Part shown: piece after piece, positions 44,139-63,379 of the stretch
Layout of the letters: the number at the start of each line of letters is the position of its first letter
How positions within the stretch are numbered: the first letter of the stretch is position 1
Source of the DNA: an uncultured Chloroflexia bacterium
GTDB lineage: Bacteria; Chloroflexota; Anaerolineae; CG2-30-64-16
Assembly (NCBI GenBank): GCA_963774265.1
Contig: CAVZDU010000001.1
Coordinates: 1,056,001 to 1,120,000 of the forward strand
Direction: 5' to 3'
DNA length: 64,000 nt
Translations under genes and position numbers: made by a program
Notes under the pieces: generated by a model
What the model saw: the letters and a program-made list of their open reading frames with translations, nothing else
Told to the model about the DNA's origin: nothing
The model's database searches: none

Positions 44139-44173
44139 GGTTGAAGATTGAGGATTGAAGATTGAAGATTGAA
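44139..44173 (+). repeat. Heptamer array x5 in the hisB-hisH gap
   Basis: ggttgaa gattgag gattgaa gattgaa gattgaa. Confidence 0.88.
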
Positions 44174-44863
44174 GACCCGACGGAGGAGCCCTGGATCGCC
44201 GTTGTTGACTATGGCGTAGGGAACCTGCGCAATGTGTACAAGGCGCTGGAGGCTGTTGGCGCGCCGGCGCGGATCGTCACGTCGCCCGCTGGGCTGCGGG
44301 GGGCGGCGGGGATCGTGCTGCCAGGGGTCGGTGCTTTCGGCGATGCTGCCGCGAACTTGCGCAGCGCCGGCTTCGAGGCGCCCCTACACGTCGCCATGGA
44401 CGCGGGAACGCCGTTGCTGGGCATCTGCGTGGGAATGCAGTTGTTATTCGATGAGAGCGAGGAGATGGGACAGCACACCGGATTGGGCGTGATCCCGGGG
44501 CGCGTCCTGCGCTTCGCCGCCGACATGCGCGGGCCGGACGGCGGGCCTGCGGGCCGAGCGCTCAAGGTGCCGCAGATCGGCTGGAACCAGCTCCACCACC
44601 GCGGGACGGATCCACTGCTGGCCGACGTTCCCGATGGCGCCTACGCATACTTCGTGCATTCTTACTTCTGTGCGCCGCTGGATGCCACATCCATCCTGGC
44701 GACGACCGATTTCGGGACAGATTATGCCTCCGTGGTGCGTCGCGACAACGTCTGGGGCATCCAATGCCACCCCGAGAAGAGCCAGGCGGTGGGGCTGCAG
44801 ATTTTGCGGAACTTCGTGGCGATCGCTATGGGTGAAACTGAGGAAGGGAGTCGAAGGGGAAAA
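44162..44863 (+). CDS. hisH: Imidazole glycerol phosphate synthase glutaminase subunit (reads in frame into hisA; start uncertain)
   Basis: DYG.GN, LPGVG, GICVGMQ, YFVHS, Q.HPEKS. Confidence 0.92.
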
Positions 44864-45646
44864 GTGACGATTATCATCTACCCGGCCATCGATCTGCGCG
44901 GCGGCCAGGTAGTGCGTCTGCGGCAGGGCGATCCGGCTGCACAGACCACCTATGGCGACGATCCTGCTGCGGCAGCGCGGCGTTGGGCCGAGCAAGGCGC
45001 TGAGTGGCTGCACGTGGTCAATCTGGACGGCGCGTTTGCCGGTGAGGCGACCGCCAGGCCTTCGAAGTCTGACAAGACCTCAAAAACCTTTGCGTTGCCC
45101 CTCAACCTGCAGCGGCTCGCTGAGATTCGCGCTGCGATGACGCTGCCGATCCAGTTCGGCGGCGGAATGCGGACATTGGCCGATGTGGCATTGGGACTGG
45201 AACTCGGCGCAACGCGCATCGTGCTGGGCACGGTTGCCGTCCGCGAGCCGGAGATCGTGGGCGAGGCTGTCAGACGATTCGGCAGCGATCGGATCGTCGT
45301 CGGCATTGATGCGCGTGACGGTCTGGTGGCGACGCATGGCTGGCAAGAGACCTCTGCACTGGACACGCTGACCGTGGCTCTGCGTATGCATGACCTGGGC
45401 GTCCAGCGGATCGTCTACACCGACATCGCCCGCGACGGCACCTTGTCCGGGGTCAACGTGTCAGCCACGGCGGCGCTGGCCCGAGGGAGCGGACTGAAGG
45501 TTATCGCCAGCGGCGGCGTCGCTTCCCTGGCCGACATCCGTGCCCTTGCCGGCTTCAAAGCCGACGGCATCGAGGGCGTGATCGTGGGGCAGGCGCTGTA
45601 CACCGGGGCGATCGATCTGCGCGAAGCGATTGCCGCGGGTAGATAG
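44864..45646 (+). CDS. hisA: ProFAR isomerase
   Basis: [31 protein letters not shown]; own GTG start with AAGGGG SD. Confidence 0.94.
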
Positions 45647-46789: not shown

Positions 46790-46999
46790 TCAGCCGTCAC
46801 TCTCCTCACTGACCACCGACAGGAGATGTAGGCCGAGATCGCGAAGCATGGTAAGCACCCCGTACAGCGCGGCCTGATCGACGACGACCCCGGACAGGAT
46901 CGTCTCGCCCTCGCCGGTACAGGTCATGCTCAGCCCGGCGAACCAGGCGGACCAGTCCTCATCGATGCGTCCTTTGACGCGAATCTCGACGGTGTGCAT
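46790..46999 (-). CDS. Small ACT-like protein (69 aa), last gene of the exporter operon
   Basis: EIRVKG....W..WF...T.L.G...DQAALYG.L..LRDL...L.SV; homologous to the N-terminus of 62380..63114. Confidence 0.8.
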   Translation of the reverse strand: MHTVEIRVKGRIDEDWSAWFAGLSMTCTGEGETILSGVVVDQAALYGVLTMLRDLGLHLLSVVSEESDG

Positions 47000-47006
47000 C
47001 GTTCGC

Positions 47007-48317
47007 CTACTCGATCGTCACCGTGGCGGTCATGTTCCAGCGGAGGCGCTCCTCGTAATTGTCGGGCTGGACGACCACGGTGTAGGTCATCTCGCCCTGC
47101 TTCTTGGCGCCCATCGGTTTGATTCGGACGACCTTGCCGGTCAACGTCACCCCGGGCAGCGCATCGAACTCCAGGTTCACCGGCGCGCCTTCTTTGACCT
47201 TGACCACATCCAGCTCGGTCAGGTCGTCGGTCTCGATGTGCCAGGCCGCAGAGATCGGCCAGCTGCATCACCGGCGTCCCCGCCAGGATCTGTTCCCCGA
47301 CCACCGGCGCGATCTCGGCCACCGTCCCGGCGAAGGGCGCCTTCAACTCGGCATCGCTCAAGGCCGGCGCGGGCCTCCTTCAGGCTGGCTTGCGCCGCAG
47401 GCCAGGTTCGCCTCGGCCGCCTGCACGGTCTCCGATCGGGCGCCCGCTTGCAGCAGGTCGAACTGCGCCTGGGCGCGGCGGAGCTCCGCCTCGGCCGCCG
47501 CCAGGTCGTCGGTCCGCGCCGGGGCGCTGAGACTGGCGAGCTGGGCCTGCGCCTGGCGCACCTGCGCCCGCGCCGCCGCCAGGTCGCCGGGCCGCGCGCC
47601 GCGTTTCACATCCTCCAGCCGGGCCCTGGCCGCATTGTAGGCGTTCGTCGCTTGTTCCAGCGCCAAGGCTTCGGGCCGGCGGCCAATATCGGACGAGCCG
47701 GCCACGGCGTCATAGACTGCCTGGGCCTGGCGGAGCGCCGCCTCCGCATTGGCCAGGTCGGCGGTGGCCGCGATCACCTGGGGTTGGGTGGCGCCTTCCC
47801 GGACTTGCTGCAGGTTGGCGGTCGCACCATCCACCACGGCCTGGGCCGCGGCAATGTCTTCCGGCTTCGCACCGGCTTTGATCATGGCCACCTGGCCCGC
47901 GGCCGCGTCGACGGCCGCCTGGGCGCTCTGGAGCTCCTCGGCCCGCGCGCCGGCCGTGAGCTCGTCCAGCTGGGCCTGGCTGCGTGCGACGCCCGCCTCG
48001 GCCTGGGCGACGGCCGCCTCCAGGCGCCCTTGCTGCAGGCGCAATAGGGGCTGGCCCGCCGCAACCTGCTCTCCCTCCGCCACGAGCACCTCCCCCACGA
48101 TGCCGCTGACCGGCATGCTGAGCGAGGCCTCCAGGGCCGGCACGACCACGCCGTCGGCCACGACCTTGTCGGGCGCACGCACAGGCTGCGGAGTCGCAGT
48201 TGGCGCTGCGCTGCCCGCGGCCGGTGCACCGCCGGTGCATCCCGCCAAGGCGATCAACAAGCCGAGCAGCGCCAAAAGAACCCCCCACTTGCGTACGAAT
48301 ACAGAGAATCCACACAT
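47007..48317 (-). CDS. HlyD/MacA-type adaptor, probable lipoprotein (frameshifts at ~47240-47400)
   Basis: LAGC lipobox, V.EGEQV..G, coiled coil, APFAG, LRWNMTA. Confidence 0.85.
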
Positions 48318-48333
48318 TGCCTGCCTCCGTTAG

Positions 48334-48447
48334 GATTGTGGATTGAAGATGAAAGATTGAAGACCCAGCACCGTTGGTCCGGGGCAGATATTGCATGTTC
48401 GACGTTGTAATCTTCAATCTTCAATCTTCAATCGTCAATCGTCATTT
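48334..48447. repeat. Two opposed heptamer arrays (4 direct units, 6 inverted units) around a 44-bp spacer
   Basis: gattgtg gattgaa gatgaaa gattgaa ... tgtaatc ttcaatc ttcaatc ttcaatc gtcaatc gtcattt. Confidence 0.85.
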
Positions 48448-48453
48448 CTGTAC

Positions 48454-50907
48454 CTATTCGTTGTAGGCCAGCACCTGGCGCACGCTGAGATTGGCAGCCT
48501 GCTGCGCCGGGGAATAGCTGGCCACGGCCGAGATCACGATCACCAACCCCAGCCACAACAGCACGCCGGTCATGGATACGATATAGGTCAACGTGATGTT
48601 CATGGTGACTTTGCCGACGACCTGGCCGATCACTTTGCCCAGGGGGTAGGCCAGCAGCACCCCGACCACCCAGCTCAGCAACCCGATCAGCACGCCCTCG
48701 ACGATCACGACCTGCAGCATGGCCCCGTGACCGGCGCCGATGGCGCGCAGGATGCCGACCTCGCGGATACGCTCCAGCACATTCAGGCTCATGGTGCCGG
48801 CCAACCCGATGCCGCCGACGAAGGCCAGGAGGACGGCCATGCTCATGAGCAGGTTGGTCACGATGCCGAACAGCGTCCCAGCGCTGCTGCGCATCTGGTC
48901 GATGGTCTGCACATAACTGACCTCAAGGCCGGCCTCGACGAACCGGGCTTGCAGCGCCTCGGCGATCTGGACGCGCTGAGGCCGCGTCGTGGCGGTCGGT
49001 CATTATCATGAGAGAGCTGACCCGGCCCGGCGTGCCGAAGCGAGGAGCCAGGTACTCGTAGTTTGTATACCCGATAGCCTGAGGCAGAGCCCAGCGCATC
49101 ACGCCTACGATCTGCCAGGTGGTCTCGTCGCCACTGATCTCCAGGACCAGTTCGTCGCCCACCTTGAGATCCGGCTCTTCAGTCAAAAAGTTGGCGCTCA
49201 CTACCAGGGCGTTCTCGTCGTCGGGCGTGAGCCATCGTCCCTCCGCCAGCATCGGGCTGACCATCTTGCTGTCCGCGGGCGGGGCATTAATCGCCGATAT
49301 CTGTGCCATCGCTGCCGTCGGGGCGGATGCGGTAGCCTCCGGCGCCGCCCCACCCCTCCACGCGCTCGACGCCCGGGACACTGGCGGCGATCGACTCCAG
49401 CAGGCTCAGGCGGTAGTCCTGGTTGAGCCCCACCTGGGCATCACCGGCAAAGTATCGAAAGACATCGTCTACGGTTCGCTGGAGAGACGTGCGCACGTTC
49501 ATCACAGCGACGAAGGTGGCGCCGGCCAGGGAGAGGGTGAACAGGGTCAGCATCAGGCGGCCCTTGTTGCGAAAGGTGTTTCTGACCGACAAGGCGATCG
49601 GGGCCGGCAGGCCCGTCAGGCCCTTTATGAAGCGATCGAACCGGCTGCGGCCAAACTCGTTGCCGGTCACACCGTAACTGGTGATCGCCTCCCGCACGGT
49701 CACCCCGCAGCCGGACAGGATGGGTATCAGCCCGGCTCCCAGCGGCACGAGTATGGCGAGTGCCGCCTGGAACAGCAGCACCGGGAGTGAAACGCTGAAC
49801 TCAGGCAGGTTGAAGTCGAGCAGGTAGGCCATGAGGTTGATGATCCAGCGGCCGGCCCAGTTCGCGAGCGGCACGGCAATGGCCAGCGCAGCCAGGCCAA
49901 ACAGGACCACCATGCCCAGGTACAGCGGGACGATCTGGCGGGTTTGGGCACCGATTGCCTTCATCACCCCGATCTGGCGCGTCTGCTGCGCCAGCAGCGC
50001 CGAGATGGTGTTGACGAGCAGCAATACGCTGAGCAGCAGGGAGAAGACACCGAGCGCAGCGAGCAGGGCGACCAGGCCCTGATAGAGGGCGTCCTGCGGC
50101 AGTTTGCCGGGCGTGGGTATGTCTATCCGTGTCACCTCCAGCCCGCTTCTGTTCAATTGGCGCTCGACCGTTACGGCCACCTCATCGATGTGGTCTACAT
50201 CGGTATTGGTCACCTGTCACCCGCACGAGCAGGTGGTCATAGGTGCGCGGATAGCCGAGCCATTCCATCGTGTCAAAGGTCACGTAGCCATAGGCGCTGC
50301 CCGTCCAGGGGGCAGAACCGTGCACGCTGTCGTAGACCATGCCGGCCATCGTCACTTTGCGGTTGATGCCGGACGGCGTTTCGACCAACAAGGTGTCGCC
50401 CTGCCTTGCGTTGGGTGTCAGGCCCATCGGGACGCCGGGCAGCTGTGAGGTGCGCTCGATCAGGATCTGCCGCTCAGGGGGAGGGTAGACGCCCGGGCTG
50501 GGCCAGCGTTCGGGGTCGGGGCCAAAGGCTTCCTCGCGCTGCAGAATGCCGATCCGTATGTTCTCGTAGTCCGATACGGCGTACAGACGCATGGGATACC
50601 AGGTCTCGGATTGGGGATGCTGAAACATGACCATGATCTGCCGGCGGCCTTCCGCCTCGGCTATCTGCGGCAGGCGCCTGATGACCTCTACCAGCTCGTC
50701 ATCGAAGGATCCGTCGACATAGAGGATTGCGTTGGGCGGGTTGGCGGCCTCGTAGCTGACCACCATTTGGTTGGCGACGATGTCCCTCATGATGGCCACC
50801 GTGCCCACCGCGAAGACGCCTACCGCGATGGAGAGGATCACGAGCACGGTGCGGCGCTTGTTGCGCCAGATGTCCCGCCAGGATCTTGCGCCAGCGTGGG
50901 CTAATCA

Positions 50908-50908
<1 letters not shown>
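48454..50908 (-). CDS. ABC exporter permease, double FtsX (several frameshifts)
   Basis: SPRWRK, QIGVMKAIGA, ERIREVGILRAIGA across four partial ORFs. Confidence 0.85.
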
Positions 50909-52095
<1,187 letters not shown>

Positions 52096-52114
52096 AGTAG
52101 AGCCCCCTACCCGC

Positions 52115-52564
52115 TCAAAGCTGTGGGCTTTCGTCGTACTCCTCGCCAGTGCGGCTCGCGGCGAGCTGTCCGCCGAGCCAGCCTCCAACGATGGCCAACA
52201 CGGCATGGATCCCCATGCCCAGGTCGGGCCCCCACGAGAAGGCTCGCCAGGCCGCAACCAGGATGGCCAGCAAGACGCCGGTGATGAGACCGGCCTTGAG
52301 ATGGTCGCTCTCCGCGTCCCGCGCGGCCATCCGTCCGCCAATGAAGCCTCCCAGCAAGATGAGCAGCGCGGCCAAGATCTGGAAAGGCAGGCTCTTGATG
52401 GCGGCGATCATCTGATCCTGAGGCGGCATCCCACGCGCCTGGAAGCCCAGCACTACGCCATAGATGGTCTGCAGGATCAGGTTGCCCACGACGCCGATGA
52501 GAAAGCCGACGAGCGTGCCGATGACGACGCGCCCCCATTTCACGGACGAAGAACCGGACGACAT
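52115..52564 (-). CDS. Hypothetical 4-TM membrane protein, first gene of the exporter operon
   Basis: Four hydrophobic helices; GGAGG SD. Confidence 0.75.
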
Positions 52565-52603
52565 CCTGGACCTCCTCGAATATGCGATGTAATATTTGCT
52601 ATC

Positions 52604-52690
52604 ATTATGGCAACGAAGGAGGGGCGCGTCATGACCCGTGAAGGGTGATCTGCGGGTAATCTTGTGGGTGCACTTGCACTATAGGGTAGG
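52604..52690 (-). promoter_or_regulatory. Promoter with a candidate LuxR/MalT-type box and phased half-sites
   Basis: CATAAT -10; ATGACCC-N5-GGGTGAT at 52631-52649 overlapping -35; GGGT half-sites at 52643, 52654, 52666. Confidence 0.55.
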
Positions 52691-52692
52691 AT

Positions 52693-55404
52693 TCAGAGGA
52701 GGCCGAGCTTCCCGGCCTTGCCCGCTGCTTCGTGGCGCGAATTGACATCGAGCTTACGGTAGATGCTCTTCAGGTGGGCCTTCACCGTATTGGCCGAAAC
52801 ATATAACGAGCGGCTGATCTCGTCGTTCGTGTTGCCGCTTGTCAGCAGGCGCAGAACTTCGAGCTCGCGTCCGCTGAGGGGTTCAACCAGCGGTTGGCTG
52901 CGGGTCACTGCTTCCCCGTGGCGGTGCGAGGGGTCGCCCCGTAGGGCAGCCAACAGCCGGCCGATGAATGCCACTTCGATGTTCCGTGCAGCGGCCTCCC
53001 TCAGCAATGCCGCCATAGGCTGCCCGAGGTCGACGAACGCGCGCACATGCTCTTCCCCGGCCGCGAGAGCCAGGGCTTCGGTCAGGAAACCCAGGGCTTC
53101 GCGGCCGGAGAGACATGCCAACGCCTGCAGCGCGCGCGTGTCCACTTGCGCGGCCATGAAGCCGACATGCGTGAGGACGGCATCACGCTTCTTGAGTAGA
53201 TCAAAAGCCTCTGCCCGACGCTCCTCGGCCAGCAACAGGCGCGCGTGCGCGAGACTCAACAGGACATAGTCCGGCAGAGATCCGATATCGTCCAACGGTG
53301 GTGACCGCTCGGTCAGATGGCGTGCTTCGCTCAGATTTCCTGCCATCAGGGCGATCAGGATACGATAGGCCAGCGCGTGACGCAAGGCGGAGGGAGATAA
53401 GTCAGGGCGCAGCGCCAGCCGCTCGACCTCCGCAACCGCCTGTCTGACAGCGGCCTGCTCGTCCCGGGCCTGTTCGACGAGCGCGAGCGTCCTTGCTGCA
53501 GCGATCTGAAGCTCCCCCTGGCCGCTTCGCCGGCTCAAGGCGACCGCCTGTCCTGCGTGAACTGCTGCGGCCGCCAGTTCATTACGGTCGAAGAGCAACT
53601 TGGCCAGGTCCGAGTGGGCCAGCGAGACGAAGGGCATATCGCCACCTAGTTGGATTACCTGCTGATACCCCTCGGCGGCCCCTCCCACGAAGCCCCGTGC
53701 GGCCTGGATCCTGCAGATGAATAACTGGGCTGCCAGCCCGGCATACTGGTTTTCCGACCGGCGACCCATCTCCACAGCCTCGCCCAGCATCTGATCTGCG
53801 CGATCCAGGTTTCCCGCGTACCAGTAGGCTATCCCCAGGTTCGTGGCGACAACGCCGCGTGCTTGCCAATTGTCGCTGGGCAGAAGCGCCAAGGCGCGTT
53901 CAGAGAGTTCCATCGCGCGCCGGTTATCACCCCTGGCGCGCGCGACATAGGCCCGTGCCGCAGCGATCGTGCCCGCAAGTCCATCGCCACCCTGGGCCGA
54001 CTCTGCCAACACAAGATAGTCTTCGGCCTCATTGACTTGCCCGGACAGGATCAGCGCCCAGCTTATGCCGGTGCATAAATCTGCCCGCGTGCGAATGAGG
54101 CTGTCAGGCAGAGCCCGGTACCAACCCAACAACGTGGTGATCTCACCGTGCTTCAGCAGACTGTCCGTGAGGCGCGAGATGAGCGCTGAAGCCTCGTCCC
54201 AGGCGTGCGCTGCCAGCGCGTGTCGAACAGCGTCAGCAGGGAACCCATTCTCGGCATACCAACGGGAAGCCCGACCCCGCAATTGTGCGATGCTCTTCGG
54301 CGCCTGAAGCGTTAACCGGTGACGCAAGAGGTCAGCGAAGAGATGATGGTAACGGTACCACTGCCGGGAGCGGTCAAGCGGGACGATAAACAGGTTGCGT
54401 TGTTCCAACGCCAGCAGGAGCGCGGAGCTATCAGTGCGCCCGGTGACCGAGTTGCACAGCGGGGCAGACAGTCGATCGAGCACGGAGGTCTTCAGCAGGA
54501 AGTCCTGAATCTCGGCGGGCTGACGCTGGACCACCTCCTCCATGAGGTAGTCCAGGATATAGCGATCGCTGCCGGTGAAGGATTCGAGCAGGGACGTCAC
54601 ATCGTCACAGTGGTGCAATGAATGTGCAAGAAGCTCGAGGCCGGCAGCCCATCCCTCGGTGCGCTGCTGGACAGCAGCGAGCCCAGCCGCAGGCAGCTCG
54701 GTCTGCGCCGTGCGCCTCAGGAATTCGAGGGTCTCTTCGGCCGTAAACTGCAGATCGCTCTGCCGGATTTCCACGATCTGACCCCTGGCGCGCCAATTGG
54801 CGAGCGGAAGCTGCGGGTCGTCACGCGTCGCGATCACCAGGTGCATGTGGGGTGGCTGATGCTCCAGGAGGAAGGCGACCTGCATGTGCACCGCCAGGGC
54901 GGTGATGAGGTGATAGTCGTCGAGCACAAGCACGAACGGAAACGACACGGAGGTCAGTTCGTTGATCAGGATCGCGAGCAGCGCCTCGTGCGGAAGTACG
55001 GGGCGGCTTTGCACATCGCTGCGCAGTAAGGGTTCGATTCCCCGCCCGACGGCCGGATCGATTCGCTGCAGCGCGGCAACGAGGTAGGTGAGAAAGCGTG
55101 CCGGGTCGCTATCGCTTGCGTCCAGTGAAAGCCAGGCGACGCGCGGACCGCTGACGACCTCAGAACTGGGAACCGTCCCCTTGGGGCTGCGCGCCTGCGC
55201 TGCAGTGCGGCCGGTAACCCATTCTGCGACCAGGGTGGTCTTGCCATAGCCTGCGGGGGCGCAAACAAGCGTGAGTTTCCGGGTGAGCCCTTCGTCCAAG
55301 CGCCGGGTGAGTCGGGGGCGCAAAAGGTGCTCCGCTCGCAGGTGCGGCACGTAGAGCTTGGTCAGCAAAGGTGGACTGGGAATCGTCCCTGTGAGACTCG
55401 ACAT
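52693..55404 (-). CDS. MalT-like STAND ATPase-TPR-LuxR transcriptional activator
   Basis: TKL..P, APAGYGKTT, LVLDDYH, TEGW, WYRYHHLF, TPR region, PLS.RELEVL...TVK.H...IY.KL. Confidence 0.93.
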   Translation of the reverse strand: MSSLTGTIPSPPLLTKLYVPHLRAEHLLRPRLTRRLDEGLTRKLTLVCAPAGYGKTTLVAEWVTGRTAAQARSPKGTVPSSEVVSGPRVAWLSLDASDSDPARFLTYLVAALQRIDPAVGRGIEPLLRSDVQSRPVLPHEALLAILINELTSVSFPFVLVLDDYHLITALAVHMQVAFLLEHQPPHMHLVIATRDDPQLPLANWRARGQIVEIRQSDLQFTAEETLEFLRRTAQTELPAAGLAAVQQRTEGWAAGLELLAHSLHHCDDVTSLLESFTGSDRYILDYLMEEVVQRQPAEIQDFLLKTSVLDRLSAPLCNSVTGRTDSSALLLALEQRNLFIVPLDRSRQWYRYHHLFADLLRHRLTLQAPKSIAQLRGRASRWYAENGFPADAVRHALAAHAWDEASALISRLTDSLLKHGEITTLLGWYRALPDSLIRTRADLCTGISWALILSGQVNEAEDYLVLAESAQGGDGLAGTIAAARAYVARARGDNRRAMELSERALALLPSDNWQARGVVATNLGIAYWYAGNLDRADQMLGEAVEMGRRSENQYAGLAAQLFICRIQAARGFVGGAAEGYQQVIQLGGDMPFVSLAHSDLAKLLFDRNELAAAAVHAGQAVALSRRSGQGELQIAAARTLALVEQARDEQAAVRQAVAEVERLALRPDLSPSALRHALAYRILIALMAGNLSEARHLTERSPPLDDIGSLPDYVLLSLAHARLLLAEERRAEAFDLLKKRDAVLTHVGFMAAQVDTRALQALACLSGREALGFLTEALALAAGEEHVRAFVDLGQPMAALLREAAARNIEVAFIGRLLAALRGDPSHRHGEAVTRSQPLVEPLSGRELEVLRLLTSGNTNDEISRSLYVSANTVKAHLKSIYRKLDVNSRHEAAGKAGKLGLL

Positions 55405-55416
55405 GTCAAGGCTTTC

Positions 55417-55453
55417 AAGAAAAATCAGCAGACGGTAGCGAAGCGTCTGCTGA
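55417..55453 (-). terminator. Intrinsic terminator just upstream of the MalT-like start codon
   Basis: tcagcagacg-N9-cgtctgctga followed by TTTTTCTT on the minus strand. Confidence 0.8.
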
Positions 55454-55627
55454 CGATCGAGGCCGCGCTACACAGCAGTGTGGCTGCGACTTGCTTGAGA
55501 GCCAATTCAATGACAACAGTGGCAGTGACGACGGCGTGAGCCCAAGTGCAGCCCTACTGCCTGTGATGCGCGTTTGCACAGACTACATCGTCCGGCCAAC
55601 CCTCTGTCTCTGGCTAGTTGAAATCCT
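55417..55627 (-). ncRNA. Candidate structured sRNA or terminated leader (~210 nt)
   Basis: Bounded by a TTGACA-N17-GATAAT promoter and an intrinsic terminator; several internal hairpins; family not recognised. Confidence 0.5.
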
Positions 55628-55633
55628 ACATAT

Positions 55634-55662
55634 ATTATCGCGCCTGGAGGGCCTTGTGTCAA
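55634..55662 (-). promoter_or_regulatory. Near-consensus sigma70 promoter
   Basis: TTGACA (55662-55657), 17-nt spacer, GATAAT (55639-55634). Confidence 0.75.
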
Positions 55663-55680
55663 TGGTTTTTAGGCGATGGG

Positions 55681-56937
55681 AAGGGCGTACGCATCTAATA
55701 AATATCATATTGTTTGCTTGGATGGTAGACGCGGCAGGCGGAATGGGCTATCCTTGAGTGGTCAGGAGGGTAGCCCATGAACGACGAGCCTACCGCAGCG
55801 ATCAGCGAGCACTTTGCGAGCCTGGCAGATCCCCGGATCGACCGGACGAAGCGCCATCAACTGCTCGACATCATCATCATTGCGATCTGCGCCATCCTGT
55901 GTGGCGCCGATGACTGGGTCGAGGTGGAGTTGTTCGGGAACGCCAAGCTGACATGGCTAAGGACGTTCCTGGAACTACCCAACGGCATCCCGTCACATGA
56001 CACCTTCGGGCGAGTGTTTGCTCGGCTGAATACCGAGCAGTTCCAGCAGTGTTTTCTGGAATGGATTCAGGCCGTGAGCCAGGTGACCCGCGGCCAAGTC
56101 ATTGCGATTGATGGTAAGGTGCTGCGTGGTTCCTGCAACCGCCTGCTCGGCAAGGCGGGCATCGCCATGGTCAGCGCCTGGGCGACGGCCAATCATCTGG
56201 TGCTTGGGCAGGTCAAGGTGGACGACAAGTCCAATGAGATCACGGCCATCCCCAAGCTGCTGCAGGTGCTGGAAATCGCCGGCTGCATCGTGACGATCGA
56301 CGCCATCGGCTGCCAGACCGAGATCACCCAGGCGATTGTCGAACAGGATGCCGACTACGTGCTGGTGGTTAAGAAGAACCAGGGCCATCTCTACGAAGAC
56401 ATCCACGCACTGTTTGCGGGAGCTCAAGAAGTGAACTTCCAGGACGTCCCGCACGATTACCACAAGACGACGGACAAGGCGCATGGCCGCCTCGAAATCC
56501 GTCAGTGTTGGACCATCTCGGATGGCAGTCTGGTGAGCTACTTGCGCAACCGGGCTGGGTGGCGCAACCTCCACACGATCGTCAAGGTCGTCGCCGAGCG
56601 CCGAATGCCGGGCGAGACGACGATCGAGACCCGGTACTTCATCTCCAGCCTGGACGGCGATGCCCGGCGCATGCTCAAGGCGCTGCGTAGCCATTGGGGC
56701 ATCGAAAACGGGTTGCACTGGGTGCTCGACATCGGCTTCGATGAAGATCACCAGCGGGTGCGCAAGGACAACGGCCCGGCCAACTTCGCTGTTCTCCGGC
56801 ACATTGCCCTCAACCTGCTCAAACAGGAAAAAAGTGTCAAGGCCGGCATCAAGGCCAAGCGTCTCAAAGCTGGCTGGGATGAGCCCTACTTGCTCAAAGT
56901 GCTCTTTGGTCAGGGCAATTAAGATGCGATTGCCCTA
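55681..56937 (+). mobile_element. ISAs1-family insertion sequence, apparently intact
   Basis: Imperfect TIRs aagggcgtacgcatcta / tagggcaatcgcatctt (reverse complement); 9-10 bp direct repeat (a)ggcgatggg at 55671-55680 and 56937-56946. Confidence 0.9.
55777..56922 (+). CDS. ISAs1 (H-repeat) DDE transposase
   Basis: DPR, GIPSHDTF.RVF, IAIDGK, KSNEITAIP, TIDA.GCQ, HGRLE.R, HWGIEN.LHW.LD. Confidence 0.96.
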   Translation: MNDEPTAAISEHFASLADPRIDRTKRHQLLDIIIIAICAILCGADDWVEVELFGNAKLTWLRTFLELPNGIPSHDTFGRVFARLNTEQFQQCFLEWIQAVSQVTRGQVIAIDGKVLRGSCNRLLGKAGIAMVSAWATANHLVLGQVKVDDKSNEITAIPKLLQVLEIAGCIVTIDAIGCQTEITQAIVEQDADYVLVVKKNQGHLYEDIHALFAGAQEVNFQDVPHDYHKTTDKAHGRLEIRQCWTISDGSLVSYLRNRAGWRNLHTIVKVVAERRMPGETTIETRYFISSLDGDARRMLKALRSHWGIENGLHWVLDIGFDEDHQRVRKDNGPANFAVLRHIALNLLKQEKSVKAGIKAKRLKAGWDEPYLLKVLFGQGN

Positions 56938-56960
56938 GGCGATGGGTGTGGGAGTGCTGC

Positions 56961-58209
56961 CTACTTTTGTCCGAGCCGGAAAGAGTGCACGTGGTCGTAA
57001 CGTCGTCCCATCACCACATCCACCTGCCCGGTGCTCATGCCATAGACCACCGACCACTGCGTGGGTGACTCGGTCTGCGACACCGTCTGCAAGAGGCCCA
57101 ACGCAGCATTGCTGTCGAGGTTTCCGCCTGAAGTTGTCAGCCGCCCGACGAGGGCGTCGTAGCGGGGGCATTGACCCGCAGCATTTCCGGTGATCGCACT
57201 GCGCGTGAAGTTGGTCGCCGCGTGCCAGGGTCCTTCGTTTGGCAATACGATGATCTGCCCGCCTTGGTACTCGACCAGTGCGGCGTGGCCCGTGCGGTCG
57301 GCTACGAGGTAGTGCAGCGGTGGGCCGCCCTCCCAGTCGATGTTGTAGCGGCCGAGGATCGCAACCGCCTCGTCCGCGCTTCCGGCATGGTCGAGGATCT
57401 CCCGGATTACCTCCAGCGAGTCGATGGTTGGTTTTCCGCGGTCGTGTCGGTCATCCGCTTGGGGTACGGCTGCCATGCCCACCGCCACGCCCGCCTCATT
57501 CATGCCGTCGAAGGGCCAGGCCGGCGCCTCAAGCAGCGCGCGGCGCTCGGCCAACGGCAACGTCGTCAGATCGATCGACTCGTCGTCGAACCCGAAATAC
57601 CGCGATGTCCACCATGGAGACCGACGCATAGCCGCCTGTGGCAGGTCGGTCTGTGAAGAGCAGCAGCGCGGGGCTGTAGCGCCAGTCAAAATTGCGACCG
57701 TAGAGCCGGTTTCCGGGGTCGCCCGATGCGGCAAAGAGCGAGCAGGCCCAGCCGCCGCCCGCCGCAATGACCTGGGAGGTCCCCGAGTCCTCCCAGGTCT
57801 TTGAGACACGAGACGAGCCGACGTAGTGCATGGTATAGAGCGGATAGTCGTCCACCTTCTGCAAGCTGGCCAGGGTTGTCGCCTGGTCGGGGGTCAGGCC
57901 AGCCGGCTGCTGGACCGGTGCAGTGACCGACGCCGGGGCCTCGGTCCGGGGGCGCGGTGGCGTCAGCCAAACTGCGCTCAGCAGTAATACCGCCAACGCA
58001 ATGAAGGCTAGCAAGAGTCGCCGAGGGGCTCTGGACCAGACCAATCCCATAGAAACCCCGACCAGGATTCCGAGCGCGACGAAAAATGGCGTGTTGTCGG
58101 ATCGGACAAGCCAGCCGGCGAGCAAGCCAAGCGCCGCCCCGATCGCCAATCCCAACACCGCACCAACGACGACTCCGGCATGCCTTGACATGATATCGAG
58201 CCTTTTCAC
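56961..58209 (-). CDS. Membrane-anchored Ntn-hydrolase (peptidase C45 / choloylglycine hydrolase-like; frameshift at ~57600)
   Basis: N-terminal TMs, ACSLF catalytic Cys, GRNFDW, DGMNE.G, ATNF, TQWSVVY. Confidence 0.82.
57769..57799. repeat. Perfect 11-bp inverted repeat read in frame within the Ntn-hydrolase gene
   Basis: gacctgggagg-N9-cctcccaggtc, within the segment encoding KTWEDSGTSQV. Confidence 0.7.
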
Positions 58210-58562
58210 TTACTTCTGCGCCAACCAGCCAGTGATCGCGTGCCGGGCATCGATACTCCCTGCCCCCTGTTGAGTGTGCATGCTTTCCTCCGTTTCTGCT
58301 TTGCTCTCCAGCTAATAGGATACAACAAAAACGCGCTGTCGGCATCAGCCACTTGGGGAGTATGGAGATCGGATAGGTGGATAGTGGGCGGCTAACCCGC
58401 CTGGGTGGCCCTCAAACCAACCATCCTGACGGCTAGCCGGGCCACTGGGCGGCAACGAGCTGAGGCGGCGGACTACTTTGCGCGACTTCGGTCCCTCCTC
58501 TAGAATGGCGGTAATTGATCCGACGATGAGGGATCGCAACCGTCACAACTGGAGTATGCCCC

Positions 58563-59132
58563 ATGCACATCCTCACCCTACTTGGCAGCCCGAGGCGACA
58601 CGGCAACACAGACGCGGTCTTGCGGCGGTTCGAGGCGGCGGCCACGGGTCGTGGCCACGCAGTGACGCGTATCGACGTCGCAGACCAAAGCGTTGCCGGG
58701 TGTCTGGGCTGTGAGGCCTGCCAGGGAGATCTGACGGACCTGGGCTGCGTGCAGACCGATGACGGCGACGACATCCTGCGGCAGATCCAGGGAACCGACC
58801 TGACCGTCTACGCGGCCCCGGTCTACTGTTGGAGCTTCCCCGCGCAGATGAAAGCCTTGATCGATCGCCATTTCTGCACGGTGAAGTGGGAAGACGGGGA
58901 GGTGGCCGCGTCACTGCTGGCTGGCAAGCGTACAGCGCTGCTGCTCACCTGCGGTGACGCTGCCGCGACGAACGCAGACCTGACGCTGACCCTGTTCCAG
59001 CGCCAGATGCGCTACACGAGCTGCAACGTTGCGGGGATGTATGTGCTCGATAACTGCACGACGCCAGTGGCCGACGCCCATCGTGCCGACTTGCTCGCGC
59101 AGCGAATGGCCGCGGAGCTGCTGGACGCATGA
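58563..59132 (+). CDS. Flavodoxin-fold iron-sulfur flavoprotein / NADPH-FMN reductase
   Basis: GSPRRHGNT, CxxCxxC...C, PVY...PAQMKALIDR. Confidence 0.9.
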   Translation: MHILTLLGSPRRHGNTDAVLRRFEAAATGRGHAVTRIDVADQSVAGCLGCEACQGDLTDLGCVQTDDGDDILRQIQGTDLTVYAAPVYCWSFPAQMKALIDRHFCTVKWEDGEVAASLLAGKRTALLLTCGDAAATNADLTLTLFQRQMRYTSCNVAGMYVLDNCTTPVADAHRADLLAQRMAAELLDA

Positions 59133-59147
59133 CGGCGCGAGGGCGCC

Positions 59148-59975
59148 TCAGGCACTAACCTGGGCATTTGATATCGCGATTTGCACCCGTTTCACGTGAG
59201 CCATTTTCCAACGCCTGTCGACCCATCGGGCTATGAGCGCCGGCGGGACCAGCCCGCCAATCACCTTCAACGAGCGATTGACCCAGCCGGGGATGTAGAC
59301 CGCCTTGTCTTGAAGCGCCGCGTCCAGCGCACCCGCAGCCACGGCGCCGGTGTTCTGCGTTGTGAGATGCCCCATCAGCCCCTGCGCTTCGATTGCGGCG
59401 ATGCATTCGGGGGTAGTAGGTAGGCCCGCGGGGCACAGCGCAGTCACCGTTACGCCCTGTCCCCGCAGTTCTTCGCGCAGCGCCAGTGAGAAATCAAGGA
59501 GAAAGCGCTTCGACGCTGCGTAGGTCGCTTTGTAGGGCATCGGATAGAGCGCGCCCAGACTGGCAACGTTGATGACGTGAAAGACATCGGTCGTGTCGCG
59601 GAGGCCCATCAGGGCGTGCGTCATTTCGATCGCGGCTTCGACGTTCAGGCGCAAGATATTGCGGATGTGCTCACGCGGCTGCTCGCAGAAGAGCCCCTCG
59701 TGATCTCCGCCAGCAACGTTGATCAGGGCGGAGAAGCGTGCATGCTCCGCCGCAAGCACCTCAAACAAGGCCGCGCGCTGGTCGGCATCGGTCAGATCAC
59801 ACGCCTGCCACTGGACTTGCACACCGTAGGCGCCGCGCAGACCCGTCGATAGTGCTTCCAATGCATCCGGGTGCAGGTCGGTCAGATACAGATGCCAGCC
59901 GCGACTGGCGCACTCGACGGCGAAGGCCCTGCCCAGTCCGCCGGTCGCGCCACTGATCATTGTGTAACGCTTCAT
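59148..59975 (-). CDS. SDR oxidoreductase (DltE-like)
   Basis: SGATGGLG, NVAG, YAASK. Confidence 0.9.
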   Translation of the reverse strand: MKRYTMISGATGGLGRAFAVECASRGWHLYLTDLHPDALEALSTGLRGAYGVQVQWQACDLTDADQRAALFEVLAAEHARFSALINVAGGDHEGLFCEQPREHIRNILRLNVEAAIEMTHALMGLRDTTDVFHVINVASLGALYPMPYKATYAASKRFLLDFSLALREELRGQGVTVTALCPAGLPTTPECIAAIEAQGLMGHLTTQNTGAVAAGALDAALQDKAVYIPGWVNRSLKVIGGLVPPALIARWVDRRWKMAHVKRVQIAISNAQVSA

Positions 59976-59994
59976 GCCGTACTCCTTCGTTCGT

Positions 59995-60880
59995 CTAGTT
60001 TGCGGCCGCAATGCCGCACATCTGCTCCGAAAGCGTCCATAGTCGTTGCGCCGCCGATCCGCTAAGCGCCTCGCGGCTGGGCGACCGCGGTTTGCTGTGC
60101 CGCCAGTACACGGCGTGCGTATTCTGGATGGACGACTCGCCCAGCAGGAAGACGATGCCGCGAGCGGCTTCTTCAGGAGGAATGCCATCGGCGCGGCGCC
60201 GTTCCCAGATCCACTTCACCAGCCCTGGCGTACCCTTCAAGCCGATGTCGGTCTTTACCAGACCGGGGTCTGCAGCAAACGCGCGGACACGGGAGGCCGC
60301 GCCAAGGCGCCGGTTGAGTTCTGCGGTGAACAGCACATTAGCCAGCTTGGTTTGGTTGTATGCCCGCAGCCCGTTGTACCGCCTGCGCAACTGAATGTCA
60401 CTCCAGTTGAGCACCGTGTGAGCGTGTGACTCTGAGCTGGTCGTGACGACCCACCGCGGCAGGCGCAGCCTGCAACAATGGCAGGAGCTCCAGTGTGAGC
60501 AAGAATGGGGCCAGATGGTTGACCGCCCACTGGGTCTCGAAACCTTCGCCGGTTAGGGTGAGCCAGTAGGTGAAGGTCCCAGCGTTGTTGGCCAAGCCAT
60601 CCAGGGATGTGCGCCCGCGGTCCGCAGTGATGTGTCGAATCTCTTCCGCCAGCCGGCGCACCTCGCTCTGGAGAGTGAGATCGGCGGTGCAGTAGGCCAC
60701 AGAACCAACATTTGAACGAATTGCGGCCAGTTTCTGCTCGGCCACGCGGCAGCGTTGGGTCGACCGGCCCACGCCGATCACATGAGCGCCCTGCCTGGCC
60801 AGTGCTTCCGCAGTCGCCAGCCCGATGCCCGAGGTTGCTCCTGTTACGACGATTGTCTTGCCCATGACTGAGAATGTCAT
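59995..60880 (-). CDS. SDR oxidoreductase, retinol-dehydrogenase-like (frameshift at ~60440)
   Basis: TGATSGIG, NNAG, VNHLAPF, YNQTKLAN, PG.V.T. Confidence 0.87.
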
Positions 60881-60909
60881 TTATACCTCCCTTTCAACTT
60901 TCTGGCTGC

Positions 60910-60988
60910 AGGATAGCGAAAAGGAGGGTGCAATGTCGTCCCTCGAAAGGGACATTCCGGGGTGTACTGTGAATGCGGAGAGGGTGCA
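60910..60988 (-). promoter_or_regulatory. Promoter with a candidate LuxR/MalT-type box and phased half-sites
   Basis: TATCCT -10; GTCCC-N6-GGGAC; GGG half-sites at 60949, 60960, 60982 (11-bp phasing). Confidence 0.5.
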
Positions 60989-60990
60989 GT

Positions 60991-62367
60991 CTAGAGTAGC
61001 TGTAGATCGCGTGCGACGGCCACGGCTTGCGTCCGGCTGCCTACCTGGAGCTTGCCGTAGATGTTGTTGATGTGACGCTTGACCGTGCCGGGCGCGATGA
61101 TGAGGCGATCTGCGATGGCCTGGTTGGACAGCCCCGCGGCGATGAGCCTCAGCACCTCAAGCTCGCGCTCGCTGAGTGGCTCGACGAGGGGTTGGTCGAC
61201 TGCCCTTTCGCGGCGAGTGGTGCTTGAAACAACAGCGAGCTCCGCGGCGCGTCGCGCGTGTTGCACCGCCAGATCAGGCACACCATGTTCTTCGCACCAG
61301 GCCGCAGCTTTCCGGTGCAGCTCACCTTGCTGGCGGGGCGGAAGGGCGAGGCGCAGCATCTCAGCGAAAAGGACATGATAACGCCACCACTCGCGACGGT
61401 TGTCTAGAGGCAATAAAAAGAGGTTCGCTGCTTCCAGCTGCTCGAGCATGGCCTGGCTATCCTCCCGTCCGGTGACCGCAGCGCAAAGGGGCGCGCAGAG
61501 GCGGTCGAGGACGGCGGTCTGGCGCAGGAAGTCCGCGAGGGGCTCGGGCTGGCGGTCCAACACCTCGGCTAAAAGGTAATCGACGATGTAGCGATCATCA
61601 CCGGCGAAGGCAGCGACGAATTCCTCTGCACCGAGTGTGTCGTTTGTTGTCAGCCCACTAAGCGCGACCCCGGCAAGCTGCAAGGCGGTGATCCACCCCT
61701 CGGTCCGCGCTGCGAGCGAGACAACCGCCGCGGGCGGGAGGCCTAATCGCAGGGTCTGATTGAGAAACGCTCCTGCTTCGTCGGGTGAGAAGCGGAGACT
61801 GCGCTCTCGCACTTCCGTGACCTGGCCCCGTGCGCGCAGGCGAGCCAGCGGCAGTGGAGGATCTTCGCGCGTGCCGATGATCAGATGGAAACAGGGCGGC
61901 CCGTGCATCAGCAAGAAGGCGACGAGGTCGTGGACGGCGAAGTTGCGGATCGTGTGGTAGTCGTCGAGCACGAGACTGCGCTCGGCGCCGTCCGCGGCCA
62001 GCGCGTTGATCAGGGCGACCAGGGTTTCCTTTGGCTCCTCAAAAGGAGCCGGCGTTGTATTGCGGTCTGGTTTCGAATCCGCGGCTGCCCGCTCAGGATG
62101 CTCTGAATAGCCCAACGCCTCGCCCACATAGCGAAGAAAGCGCGCCGGCTCGTTGTCGCCTTCATCGAGCGTCAGCCAGGCGACGTCCTGTTCGGCCGCG
62201 GCCATCCATTCTCGGATCAACGTCGACTTGCCGAAGCCTGGGGGCGCCGAAATGAGTGTCAAGCGTGCACCTTCGGCCAGTCGGACGACCAACCGAGGCC
62301 GCGCGATCTGATCCGGTCGGGACACCGGTGCACGCAGCTTGGTGGAGAGCAGCGGCTCGGCACTCAC
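60991..62367 (-). CDS. Short MalT-like STAND-LuxR regulator lacking the TPR sensor region
   Basis: APPGFGKST, LVLDDYH, TEGW, WWRYH.LF, followed almost directly by the PLSERELEVL LuxR HTH; 458 aa in one frame. Confidence 0.9.
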   Translation of the reverse strand: MSAEPLLSTKLRAPVSRPDQIARPRLVVRLAEGARLTLISAPPGFGKSTLIREWMAAAEQDVAWLTLDEGDNEPARFLRYVGEALGYSEHPERAAADSKPDRNTTPAPFEEPKETLVALINALAADGAERSLVLDDYHTIRNFAVHDLVAFLLMHGPPCFHLIIGTREDPPLPLARLRARGQVTEVRERSLRFSPDEAGAFLNQTLRLGLPPAAVVSLAARTEGWITALQLAGVALSGLTTNDTLGAEEFVAAFAGDDRYIVDYLLAEVLDRQPEPLADFLRQTAVLDRLCAPLCAAVTGREDSQAMLEQLEAANLFLLPLDNRREWWRYHVLFAEMLRLALPPRQQGELHRKAAAWCEEHGVPDLAVQHARRAAELAVVSSTTRRERAVDQPLVEPLSERELEVLRLIAAGLSNQAIADRLIIAPGTVKRHINNIYGKLQVGSRTQAVAVARDLQLL

Positions 62368-62379
62368 GGTTTGCCGGAC

Positions 62380-63114
62380 CTACGCGATGTCAGAGGTTTC
62401 ATCGTTCGCCGCGCCCGTCTCGCGGCGCACCGTCGGACGGCTCGAGGATGGTTCCCCTGTTGCCGCGATACGGCTGCGAAGGTCCTCGGCATGCCGCCGC
62501 AAGAAGGAGAGCAAGTAGACGAGACCACCCGCCAGCAGGAAGAGCATCACACCGATGCCCAGCGCGGGGGGTAGGAGCCCGGAGACAGGGATGAACACAA
62601 GGAACGCGATGGCGGTGGCCGGCCACAGCACATAAGACAGCCAACTCCACGCGGCCTGCCCGCTCCAGACAAAGAATGCGTGCGCCAGTCCGCCGAGCGC
62701 GGCAAAGAGCAGCGTCAGAGCCAAGGCAGTGTTGATGACCGGCGCAATGAAGACGGTGAGCGTGGCCAATCCACCCAGCAGCAGCAGATAAAGCGCGACC
62801 AGCAGGGCGGTGATGAGGAGATCGAGGCGCCGGCTCTGCAGGGCTAGTCTGAGTTGCGCGTCTACGTCGAGCACTTTGACGGACACCAGGGGGATCGCCA
62901 GATCGCGCAACCGGGCGAGTAGCCCGTATAAGGCCGCGTGGTCAGCCGCGCGGCCGCGTAAGGTAGACTCGCCCTTCGCCGCGGTGATGGTCAGGTCATC
63001 GAACCAGTCGGTCCACTGCCCGCTCGAGAGCCGGCCTTTGACGTGAATCTCGTAGAGAAAAGGCGGCTGGTCGAATGGTCGGCCATCCGGAATCATTGAT
63101 GGGTTCGTTTGCAT
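62380..63114 (-). CDS. ACT-like domain fused to about 4 TM helices
   Basis: YEIHVKG.....W.DWF...S.L.G...DHAALYGLL..LRDL...L.SV, then hydrophobic helices. Confidence 0.75.
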   Translation of the reverse strand: MQTNPSMIPDGRPFDQPPFLYEIHVKGRLSSGQWTDWFDDLTITAAKGESTLRGRAADHAALYGLLARLRDLAIPLVSVKVLDVDAQLRLALQSRRLDLLITALLVALYLLLLGGLATLTVFIAPVINTALALTLLFAALGGLAHAFFVWSGQAAWSWLSYVLWPATAIAFLVFIPVSGLLPPALGIGVMLFLLAGGLVYLLSFLRRHAEDLRSRIAATGEPSSSRPTVRRETGAANDETSDIA

Positions 63115-63379
63115 GGGCCTGGCTCCAGAGTCCTGTTCTCGCCAACCGTCGCGGCGGATGATCGGTGGTATTCGCAAGCCAAGTGCTGCGTGTACACTTA
63201 TTCTGTCATAGCGCAGGCCGTGTGGGATGCACCGAAAGGCGCATTTGGGGTTGCACTTGAGTCTGCTTCATGTGACCGCCTTCGATCGCAATTGTGATGC
63301 GCATGGGTCGACTCCTTCCCTCCGGAGCGGGCAGGAATCGCGTAGACTCCCGCCCGTGTGAGCGCAGGGGGGCCGAGAT

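Follow-up and report, generated by a model that had tools for sequence, protein, structure and literature searches.

The 64,000-nt window analyzed here (positions 1,056,001–1,120,000 of contig CAVZDU010000001.1, from an uncultured Chloroflexia bacterium) contains two versions of a widespread, unnamed cassette, which comprises a gene for a MalT-like regulator, a repeat array with a −10-like hexamer, a small domain of about 65 residues that we label DOM, and variable cargo. Gene calls are based on a map of the open reading frames (ORFs) and their translations, which place two DOM genes and two regulator genes where an earlier note on this DNA had put them (Table 1). The first DOM protein, P0001, consists of the domain alone and has 69 residues. 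The second, P0002, can be read from a TTG or from an ATG start, the latter giving 244 residues; in the long form, DOM lies at about residues 38–105 and is followed by hydrophobic stretches at 115–165 and 178–228, which by hydropathy leave room for about four transmembrane (TM) helices, an arrangement referred to below as DOM-4TM. With 29 of 59 residues identical (49%, E = 3e-15), P0001 and P0002 are paralogues, and the motif quoted in the earlier note is present in both. The main observation of that note, that one domain recurs near two MalT-like regulators, holds: P0001 lies near the regulator P0004 and P0002 near the regulator P0003.

The regulator of module 1, P0004 (903 residues), matches AAA_22, TPR_MalT (E = 1e-42), and GerE (E = 6e-18) in a Pfam scan and thus combines a STAND NTPase, a TPR-like sensor, and a C-terminal LuxR-type helix-turn-helix (HTH) in one chain. 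The NCBIfam MalT model, NF003420, aligns over residues 15–900 with 429.3 bits, below its curated cut-off of 537 bits; judged by sequence, P0004 is MalT-like and not MalT. The regulator of module 2, P0003 (458 residues), matches AAA_22/AAA_16 and GerE and has no TPR_MalT match in the same scan, and the MalT model covers it only at positions 2–373 plus the HTH.

The linkage between DOM and MalT-like genes extends well beyond the window. The host genome (5.5 Mb in 10 contigs) encodes seven strong and one weak copy of DOM and 11 MalT-like loci, and all eight copies lie within 5.7 kb of such a locus, five of them directly adjacent or overlapping. Taken with flanks of 6.5 kb, the 11 loci span about 3% of its sequence. 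The linkage greatly exceeds what chance would give. At least 571 stretches of species-representative genomes encode a relative of DOM. Among the best 80 of these loci, to which all cross-phylum counts below refer, there are 91 DOM copies, of which 78 have a MalT-type HTH upstream of them, on the same strand, and no more than 6 kb away; the HTH ends within 400 bp in 59 cases and is further off in 19. Seven copies have no upstream, same-strand MalT-type HTH in at least 3 kb of visible sequence, and for the other six the upstream sequence is too short to judge. In 21 related genomes, DOM is found in 12 and MalT-like genes in 18, and all 12 genomes with DOM also have MalT-like genes. There, 39 of the 57 matches to DOM have a MalT-like match no more than 6.5 kb away; DOM is downstream on the same strand in 32 of these pairs, upstream on that strand in 4, and in divergent orientation in 3. 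In the opposite direction, a DOM is near 23 of 47 near-full-length MalT-like matches, a count made on a hand-entered subset; many contigs are short and 13 matches are not in it, so that the unpaired numbers are upper bounds. Enrichment near MalT-like genes, on which the earlier note had made its idea depend, is thus strong in the host genome, in its relatives, and across phyla.

That this adjacency is meaningless, with DOM merely carried along as MalT-like genes duplicate or landing beside them by chance, is very improbable indeed. The copies within one genome are paralogues and hence not independent, as such an explanation would have it, but it is contradicted by the pairing in relatives and by the cross-phylum loci, where the same order and strand recur in records that name Chloroflexota lineages, Actinomycetota (Kribbella, Geodermatophilus, Nocardioides, and others), Cyanobacteria, Bacillales, Acidobacteriota, and Methylomirabilota. 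The strong conservation of the protein, with 11 invariant columns in 25 diverse family members (W16, W19, G37, D41, A43, A44, L45, G47, L55, L59, and V62), speaks against it as well. The pairing of regulator and DOM recurs across many soil bacteria, and DOM is probably a working part of this regulator class.

The spacer between the stop codon of the regulator gene and DOM, with a median length of 194 bp (n = 59), carries a conserved repeat element. The sequence TCACCACA occurs in 29 of 58 spacers, compared with at most 6 in shuffled sequences, and a representative element reads AATCACCAC-ATCAAT-CACCAC-AT-GTGGTG-ATCCCTTCT-CACCAC-ATT. A strict search for four half-sites in the arrangement h-N6-h-N2-rc(h)-N9-h, with at most two mismatches in total, finds the array in 21 of 59 spacers (0.02 per 59 in shuffles), 18 of them with the 6-2-9 spacing. 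The half-site co-varies in all four copies between loci (CACCAC in 13, CATCAC in 3, and CCCCAC in 3), and other spacers contain related arrays with CAACAC or TAC half-sites. Since the direct repeats keep the same sequence, the array is more readily explained as a site bound by a protein than as an RNA hairpin. A TAnnnT hexamer follows the fourth half-site by 9 or 10 nt in 16 of the 21 arrays, and two of the other five run off the end of the extracted stretch. This geometry would place the palindrome near −43, the usual position for a class II activator of the LuxR type. In four actinomycetotal loci (L005, L016, L023, and L060), the array ends 12–19 nt before the start of DOM, a distance at which the DOM mRNA would be leaderless if TAnnnT is the −10 element.

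Behind most MalT-like genes of the host genome, two without DOM among them, lies an array of this type. At one of these (L085, G000:C2:869616-873051), a clear CACCAC array precedes a DUF6326 gene directly with no DOM between them, which indicates that the array goes with the regulator rather than with DOM. The gene immediately past the array is usually DOM; the cargo then varies and is most often a membrane protein of the DUF4386 family. The strict array scan was also considered as a definition of the regulon in the host genome and was rejected as not specific enough: 11 of its 13 matches are G+C-rich hexamers with off-standard spacing.

Module 1 runs from the regulator gene through a 350-bp spacer to a small membrane protein, an ABC ATPase, a permease, an adaptor, and DOM. 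Because P0001 starts 8 nt past the stop of the HlyD-family adaptor, it is the last gene of the exporter operon, as the earlier note had it. The spacer holds an array (52670–52618) followed by a −10-like CATAAT (52609–52604), both read directly from the sequence; the array is degenerate relative to the canonical one, but the block ATYACCCGC..ATCACCCTTC.CGGGTCATGAC..CCATA.TG is kept in G002, a genome of the same genus. This region is a candidate operator/promoter. The small membrane protein is 57% identical to the ORF in the same position of G002. The G002 orthologue of the ABC ATPase has 386 residues and is 82% identical, and because its alignment begins at 52095, the true start of the ATPase gene is probably near that position. 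The C-terminal cyclic-nucleotide-binding domain of this ATPase could provide a second regulatory input to the same operon. The permease of G002, an intact ORF of 815 residues, aligns to the window in the successive frames −1, −2, −3, −1, and −2. Several MalT-like genes elsewhere in the host genome are also fragmented (C2 837555–840560, 845443–848051, and 901387–904761), and the broken permease, HlyD-family, and MalT-like genes reflect either assembly indels or real decay. A gene for an IS4-type transposase of 381 residues (55777–56922, plus strand; DDE_Tnp_1_assoc and DDE_Tnp_1) lies between the modules, about 370 bp upstream of the P0004 start.

In module 2, DOM-4TM comes first, followed by the short regulator gene, a 110-bp spacer, and two short-chain dehydrogenases. 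Only 12 nt separate the end of P0002 from the start of P0003, and the two are therefore probably co-transcribed; the earlier description of a DOM with about four TM helices directly upstream of the second regulator is borne out by the hydropathy and by this gap. The order of DOM-4TM, a regulator of 439–483 residues lacking TPRs, and dehydrogenases is kept in three relatives (G012, G006, and G001), one of which, G012, belongs to another genus and has DOM-4TM and regulator genes that overlap by 4 nt. In these genomes, the P0002 orthologues are 62–74% identical, and those of P0003 have the same domain make-up and are 60–64% identical. The spacer contains an array at 60986–60926 and TATCCT at 60915–60910, and in an alignment of the four genomes C.CCCC, GAC, CACCC, and GCTATCCTG are invariant, so marking a second candidate operator/promoter. 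The first dehydrogenase has 160 residues versus 279–290 in its G006 and G001 orthologues and is truncated or frameshifted. The TM part of P0002 was compared with DUF4386, DUF6326, other membrane proteins, and all ORFs of the genome and loci, with no significant match (best E = 0.004, in a comparison of six proteins).

Table 1. Positions of the two cassettes in the window and the basis of each assignment
Feature	Position	Strand	Basis
DOM-4TM protein P0002	62380..63114 (TTG alternative 63177)	-	Translation; 49% identity to P0001; hydropathy
Module 2 regulator P0003, no TPR sensor	60991..62367	-	Pfam; NCBIfam
Candidate module 2 operator/promoter	60910..60986	-	CACCC half-sites; palindrome GTCCCTTTCGAGGGAC; -10-like TATCCT
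Short-chain dehydrogenase, first gene past the module 2 promoter	60398..60880	-	adh_short, E 1.6e-19
Second short-chain dehydrogenase	59148..60188	-	adh_short, E 8e-32; 68% identical to same-position gene of G006
Module 1 regulator P0004	52693..55404	-	Pfam; NCBIfam; 71% identical to G002 orthologue
Candidate module 1 operator/promoter	52604..52670	-	Half-sites AT(C/T)ACCC, direct and inverted, read from the sequence
Small membrane protein, 149 residues, first ORF past the operator	52115..52564	-	Weak DUF3792 match, E 5e-5
ABC ATPase with C-terminal cNMP-binding domain	50908..52341	-	ABC_tran, E 6e-39; cNMP_binding, E 2e-18
MacB/FtsX-type permease, broken over several frames	48454..50908	-	FtsX and MacB_PCD matches on four ORFs
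HlyD-family periplasmic adaptor, two ORFs (47358-48317 and 47007-47207)	47007..48317	-	Biotin_lipoyl_2; HlyD_D23; HlyD_3
Stand-alone DOM P0001	46790..46999	-	Translation; small-protein family; AlphaFold 2 model; 84% identical to G002 copy

The DOM family is large and carries no annotation. Neither P0001 nor P0002 matches a Pfam family at E values up to 1 or an NCBIfam model, and among the 25 diverse members none has a Pfam family at a meaningful level; BON_like matches two of them (best E = 0.051) and the YscD Bon-like domain one (E = 4.4e-4), neither of which matches P0001. A word-indexed search retrieved 1214 small proteins (37–121 residues, E ≤ 1e-3), of which all named ones are called hypothetical. 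A profile search of 1.84 billion cluster representatives (50% identity) gave 13,000 at E ≤ 1e-3, among them 5,892 at E ≤ 1e-10. Of the best 150 of the 13,000, the majority are stand-alone proteins of 72–125 residues. The family motif is W..W[FL] ... D[QH]AAL[YH]G. A search of the ESM Atlas returned only unnamed clusters of hypothetical proteins, and a search of PDB sequences with the family profile gave a single match at chance level (E = 0.66).

The AlphaFold 2 (AF2) model of P0001 (pLDDT 89.6) folds into a β-α-β-β-α-β arrangement, with strands at residues 2–9, 24–27, 32–39, and 58–66 and helices at 14–19 and 42–54, the topology of an ACT-type fold of 60–80 residues. Foldseek finds nothing in the PDB at E ≤ 1e-3, with the ACT domain of Rel at ranks 26–28 (E = 0.013). 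In VIA-align against structure representatives, the best Z score is 7.8 (SecDF P4), and ACT/RAM chains at 7.3–7.7 are tied with SecDF P4, YebC, and others. The top matches include the stand-alone RAM modules 2djw (Z = 7.7) and 2zbc (Z = 7.3), RAM domains of Lrp/AsnC proteins, and the ACT domains of ThrA and the AHAS small subunit; the structures of stand-alone RAM modules and of ACT domains (2djw, 2zbc, 6dzs, and 2pc6) share a fold of about 70 residues with root-mean-square deviations of 2.2–2.7 Å over 66–69 residues. They differ from DOM in that it has an invariant motif of its own, that Z scores in this range are also reached by unrelated common folds, and that ACT and RAM sequence profiles match neither P0001 nor P0002 (Pfam and NCBIfam). 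Ferredoxin-like is a fair label for the predicted fold, and the term ACT-like used in the earlier note is apt for the fold class given by the AF2 topology, while the membership in the ACT family that it might imply is not borne out by any profile match.

The same comparison bears on whether DOM could be a stand-alone small-molecule module of the ACT/RAM type that buffers or presents an inducer or metabolite, independent of any stable contact with regulator or cargo. The predicted topology and the presence of stand-alone RAM modules and of RAM and ACT domains among the best structural matches are in keeping with this, and the invariant Trp16, Trp19, Asp41, and Gly47 could line a pocket. Such a role is improbable all the same: according to VIA-align's own guide, Z scores of 7–8 are typical best scores for models without a true match, ACT/RAM profiles match none of the 25 members, and the cargo is so varied that the gene context suggests no ligand.

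The genes that follow DOM were surveyed at the 80 loci, where 77 first downstream genes were called and 63 scanned, after 14 spurious-looking ORFs of 62–125 residues had been dropped. DUF4386 accounts for 28 of the 63, ABC_tran for 6, DUF6326 for 4, and ABC2_membrane_2 and ADH_zinc for 2 each; DJ-1/PfpI, FMN_red+SCP2, MMPL, PFL, MFS, Pyr_redox_2, and DUF2306 occur once each, and 14 match no family. In the host genome, the cargo ranges over DUF4386, an alcohol dehydrogenase (ADH), a beta-lactamase-family protein, and a DUF6789-like membrane protein. Distant relatives of P0002 (P0153 and P0158) have the form DOM-4TM-DOM: their alignment to P0002 spans DOM plus all four helices, and a second DOM follows at the C terminus. 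With this layout, both DOMs would face the same side of the membrane, a hint that DOM may pair. The AF2 model of P0153, based on an alignment of five rows (pLDDT 64.6, pTM 0.32), is usable only as the order of DOM, four long helices, and DOM, and not for their packing. ABC ATPases of about 260 residues with a C-terminal DOM (P0127, P0128, and P0130) come from three metagenomic sources, and their layout recalls MalK and MetN, which carry C-terminal regulatory domains. Fusions of DOM to an ECF sigma factor (P0144), ADH (P0137), and SnoaL (P0136 and P0145), together with the GerE-DOM form P0149, were read as gene-calling read-through, being singletons or nearly so with long linkers or internal start-like sites. 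P0100 and an ORF of L025, in which a fragment of MalT is joined to DOM, were read as deletion products.

We propose that the regulator would bind the array and activate the promoter behind it in a class II manner and that DOM would in turn modulate the regulator of its own cassette, whether as an anti-activator or as a co-sensor. A tight coupling between DOM and a membrane protein would let the state of that protein set the amount of free DOM. The parts would then form a partner switch, in which DOM holds the regulator back and is itself sequestered by the membrane cargo, following the logic of PspA/PspF/PspBC or MalK/MalT. In module 1, DOM closes an exporter operon that the regulator probably drives, an arrangement that would yield feedback; the negative feedback suggested in the earlier note fits a DOM gene in an operon that starts behind the candidate operator just past the regulator. 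In module 2, the regulator would have lost its TPR sensor, with DOM-4TM supplying the input, and the membrane-coupled sensing envisaged earlier is consistent with the conservation of DOM-4TM and a sensor-less regulator in three relatives. On the present analysis, we hold this partner-switch model tentatively, its chances falling a little short of even.

A direct action on the regulator is favored over other roles because DOM stays constant while the cargo varies, because DOM was not found in the MalT-less genomes of the sample searched, and because the DOM of module 2 accompanies a sensor-less regulator outside the target operon. Several observations weigh against it. DOM lies nearer to the next gene than to the regulator gene: the gap to the following gene on the same strand has a median of 27.5 bp and does not exceed 30 bp in 26 of 48 cases, as compared with the median spacer of 194 bp. 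The natural fusions found join DOM to membrane proteins or to ABC ATPases, and GerE-DOM was met only as the singleton P0149, whose linker is long. Members of the P0001 subfamily are encoded at the end of ABC exporter operons or close to it, and not at the start, as seen in the window, in G002, and in L007, the last with an ABC-2 exporter. DOM lies within 6.5 kb of only 23 of the 47 near-full-length MalT-like genes of the relatives, about half being without it at most, and the host genome has arrays with no DOM behind them, both at L085 (C2 869616) and at C2 849487, where a regulator with a clear array is followed by an ADH gene. The strict array scan of the host genome yields only 2 of 13 matches behind MalT-like genes; the window's own arrays are degenerate, of a CACCC type, and were located by eye and by alignment to relatives rather than by that scan, and no clusters of exact CACCC were found in the window. 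None of the results here bears out a predicted contact between DOM and the regulator. A complex prediction for P0004 with P0001, from two alignments, gave an ipSAE of 0.00 in two runs made without controls and is evidence neither way.

Much of this would equally be expected if DOM were an accessory of the cargo, a cytoplasmic subunit that binds a ligand or acts like a chaperone for the membrane protein or exporter encoded after it and never touches the regulator, comparable to HMA metallochaperones or to the C-terminal regulatory domains of ABC ATPases. The regulator would then turn on the operon, and DOM would be no more than the first of its products. The short gap to the next gene, the exporter operons ending in DOM, and the MalT-like genes without DOM all agree with such a role, as does the prevalence of membrane and transport proteins among the first downstream genes (41 of 63 from DUF4386, ABC_tran, DUF6326, ABC2_membrane_2, and MMPL, or 43 of 63 once MFS and DUF2306 are added). 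So do the fusions, which comprise DOM-4TM, DOM-4TM-DOM, DOM-DUF4386 (P0146), and ABC_tran-DOM. However, the cargo is too varied for a dedicated subunit, as it includes a soluble ADH, DJ-1/PfpI, an FMN reductase, a PFL-like enzyme, and Pyr_redox, and DOM keeps company with the regulator (78 of 91 copies) more constantly than with any single cargo family (28 of 63 at most). Moreover, the DOM-4TM of module 2 lies upstream of the regulator gene at a distance suited to co-transcription and outside the operon behind the array, a layout found in four genomes. We regard a purely cargo-side role as a real possibility that nevertheless has the smaller part of the probability; were it correct, DOM would still be a large unannotated family deserving a name. 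The partner-switch model, for its part, accommodates both the regulator-side and the cargo-side facts.

E. coli MalT, a STAND ATPase with a TPR-like sensor and a LuxR HTH, activates promoters via short repeated boxes, and its activity is set by the partner proteins MalK, which is a transporter ATPase, MalY, and Aes, all encoded away from MalT's own cassette. The cassettes described here resemble this system in the make-up of the regulator and in the repeat boxes at the promoter. They differ in that P0004 falls below the MalT equivalog cut-off (429 versus 537 bits), in the four-site array with a central palindrome, and in DOM, which has no likeness to MalK, MalY, or Aes, belongs to no Pfam family, and is encoded inside the cassette; its binding to the regulator is here only proposed. 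A second parallel is PspF, a sigma-54 enhancer-binding AAA+ protein without a sensor of its own, which is restrained by PspA, a long coiled coil made from the first gene of the activated operon, with the membrane proteins PspBC of that operon controlling the restraint. This likeness is one of logic, with no homology to the parts of the cassette and with an interaction that here is likewise a proposal. The arrangement at the promoter resembles that described for TpdR, a large ATP-binding LuxR (LAL) activator of the PTTMP promoter of Rhodococcus jostii, in that the regulator lies beside its target operon, direct and inverted repeats overlap the −35 region, and the cargo genes are catabolic or xenobiotic in type (PMC6099782). 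TpdR differs in having 15-nt direct repeats versus hexamer half-sites at 6-2-9 spacing here, and the parts of the paper drawn on here do not mention a small ferredoxin-like first gene (PMC6099782). Among Creative Commons papers in PMC and bioRxiv preprints, no literature was found on DUF4386, DUF6326, or the array motif CACCACATGTGGTG, and titles and abstract openings from the same sources gave none on a small partner protein of MalT/LAL regulators.

Regulators of the MalT/LAL type abound in Actinomycetota and Chloroflexota; they control catabolic, efflux, and natural-product genes, and to our knowledge the inputs of nearly all of them are not known. A large unnamed family encoded beside these regulators and behind a readable operator offers a concrete and cheap handle on their feedback or input. 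The co-varying half-sites offer a means of assigning each promoter to the regulator that drives it and could supply a set of orthogonal inducible promoters. In its broadest form, the proposal would make DOM the missing input subunit of an entire class among the MalT/LAL-type regulators, produced from the regulator's target promoter, restraining the STAND ATPase, and drawn away by neighboring membrane proteins. We consider this generalization doubtful; if true, thousands of cassettes in soil bacteria would be sensors of membrane state or xenobiotics with built-in feedback, and module 2 would represent an end point at which DOM-4TM has replaced the sensor domain altogether.

Elsewhere in the window, a single ORF of 494 residues (44162–45646, plus strand) fuses HisH and HisF, parts of imidazole glycerol phosphate synthase, and HisA-like and PRA-PH genes come next. 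Between the modules, an ORF on the minus strand (56961–58345) with a weak match to CBAH/AAT, of the Ntn-hydrolase type, overlaps an unassigned ORF of 219 residues.

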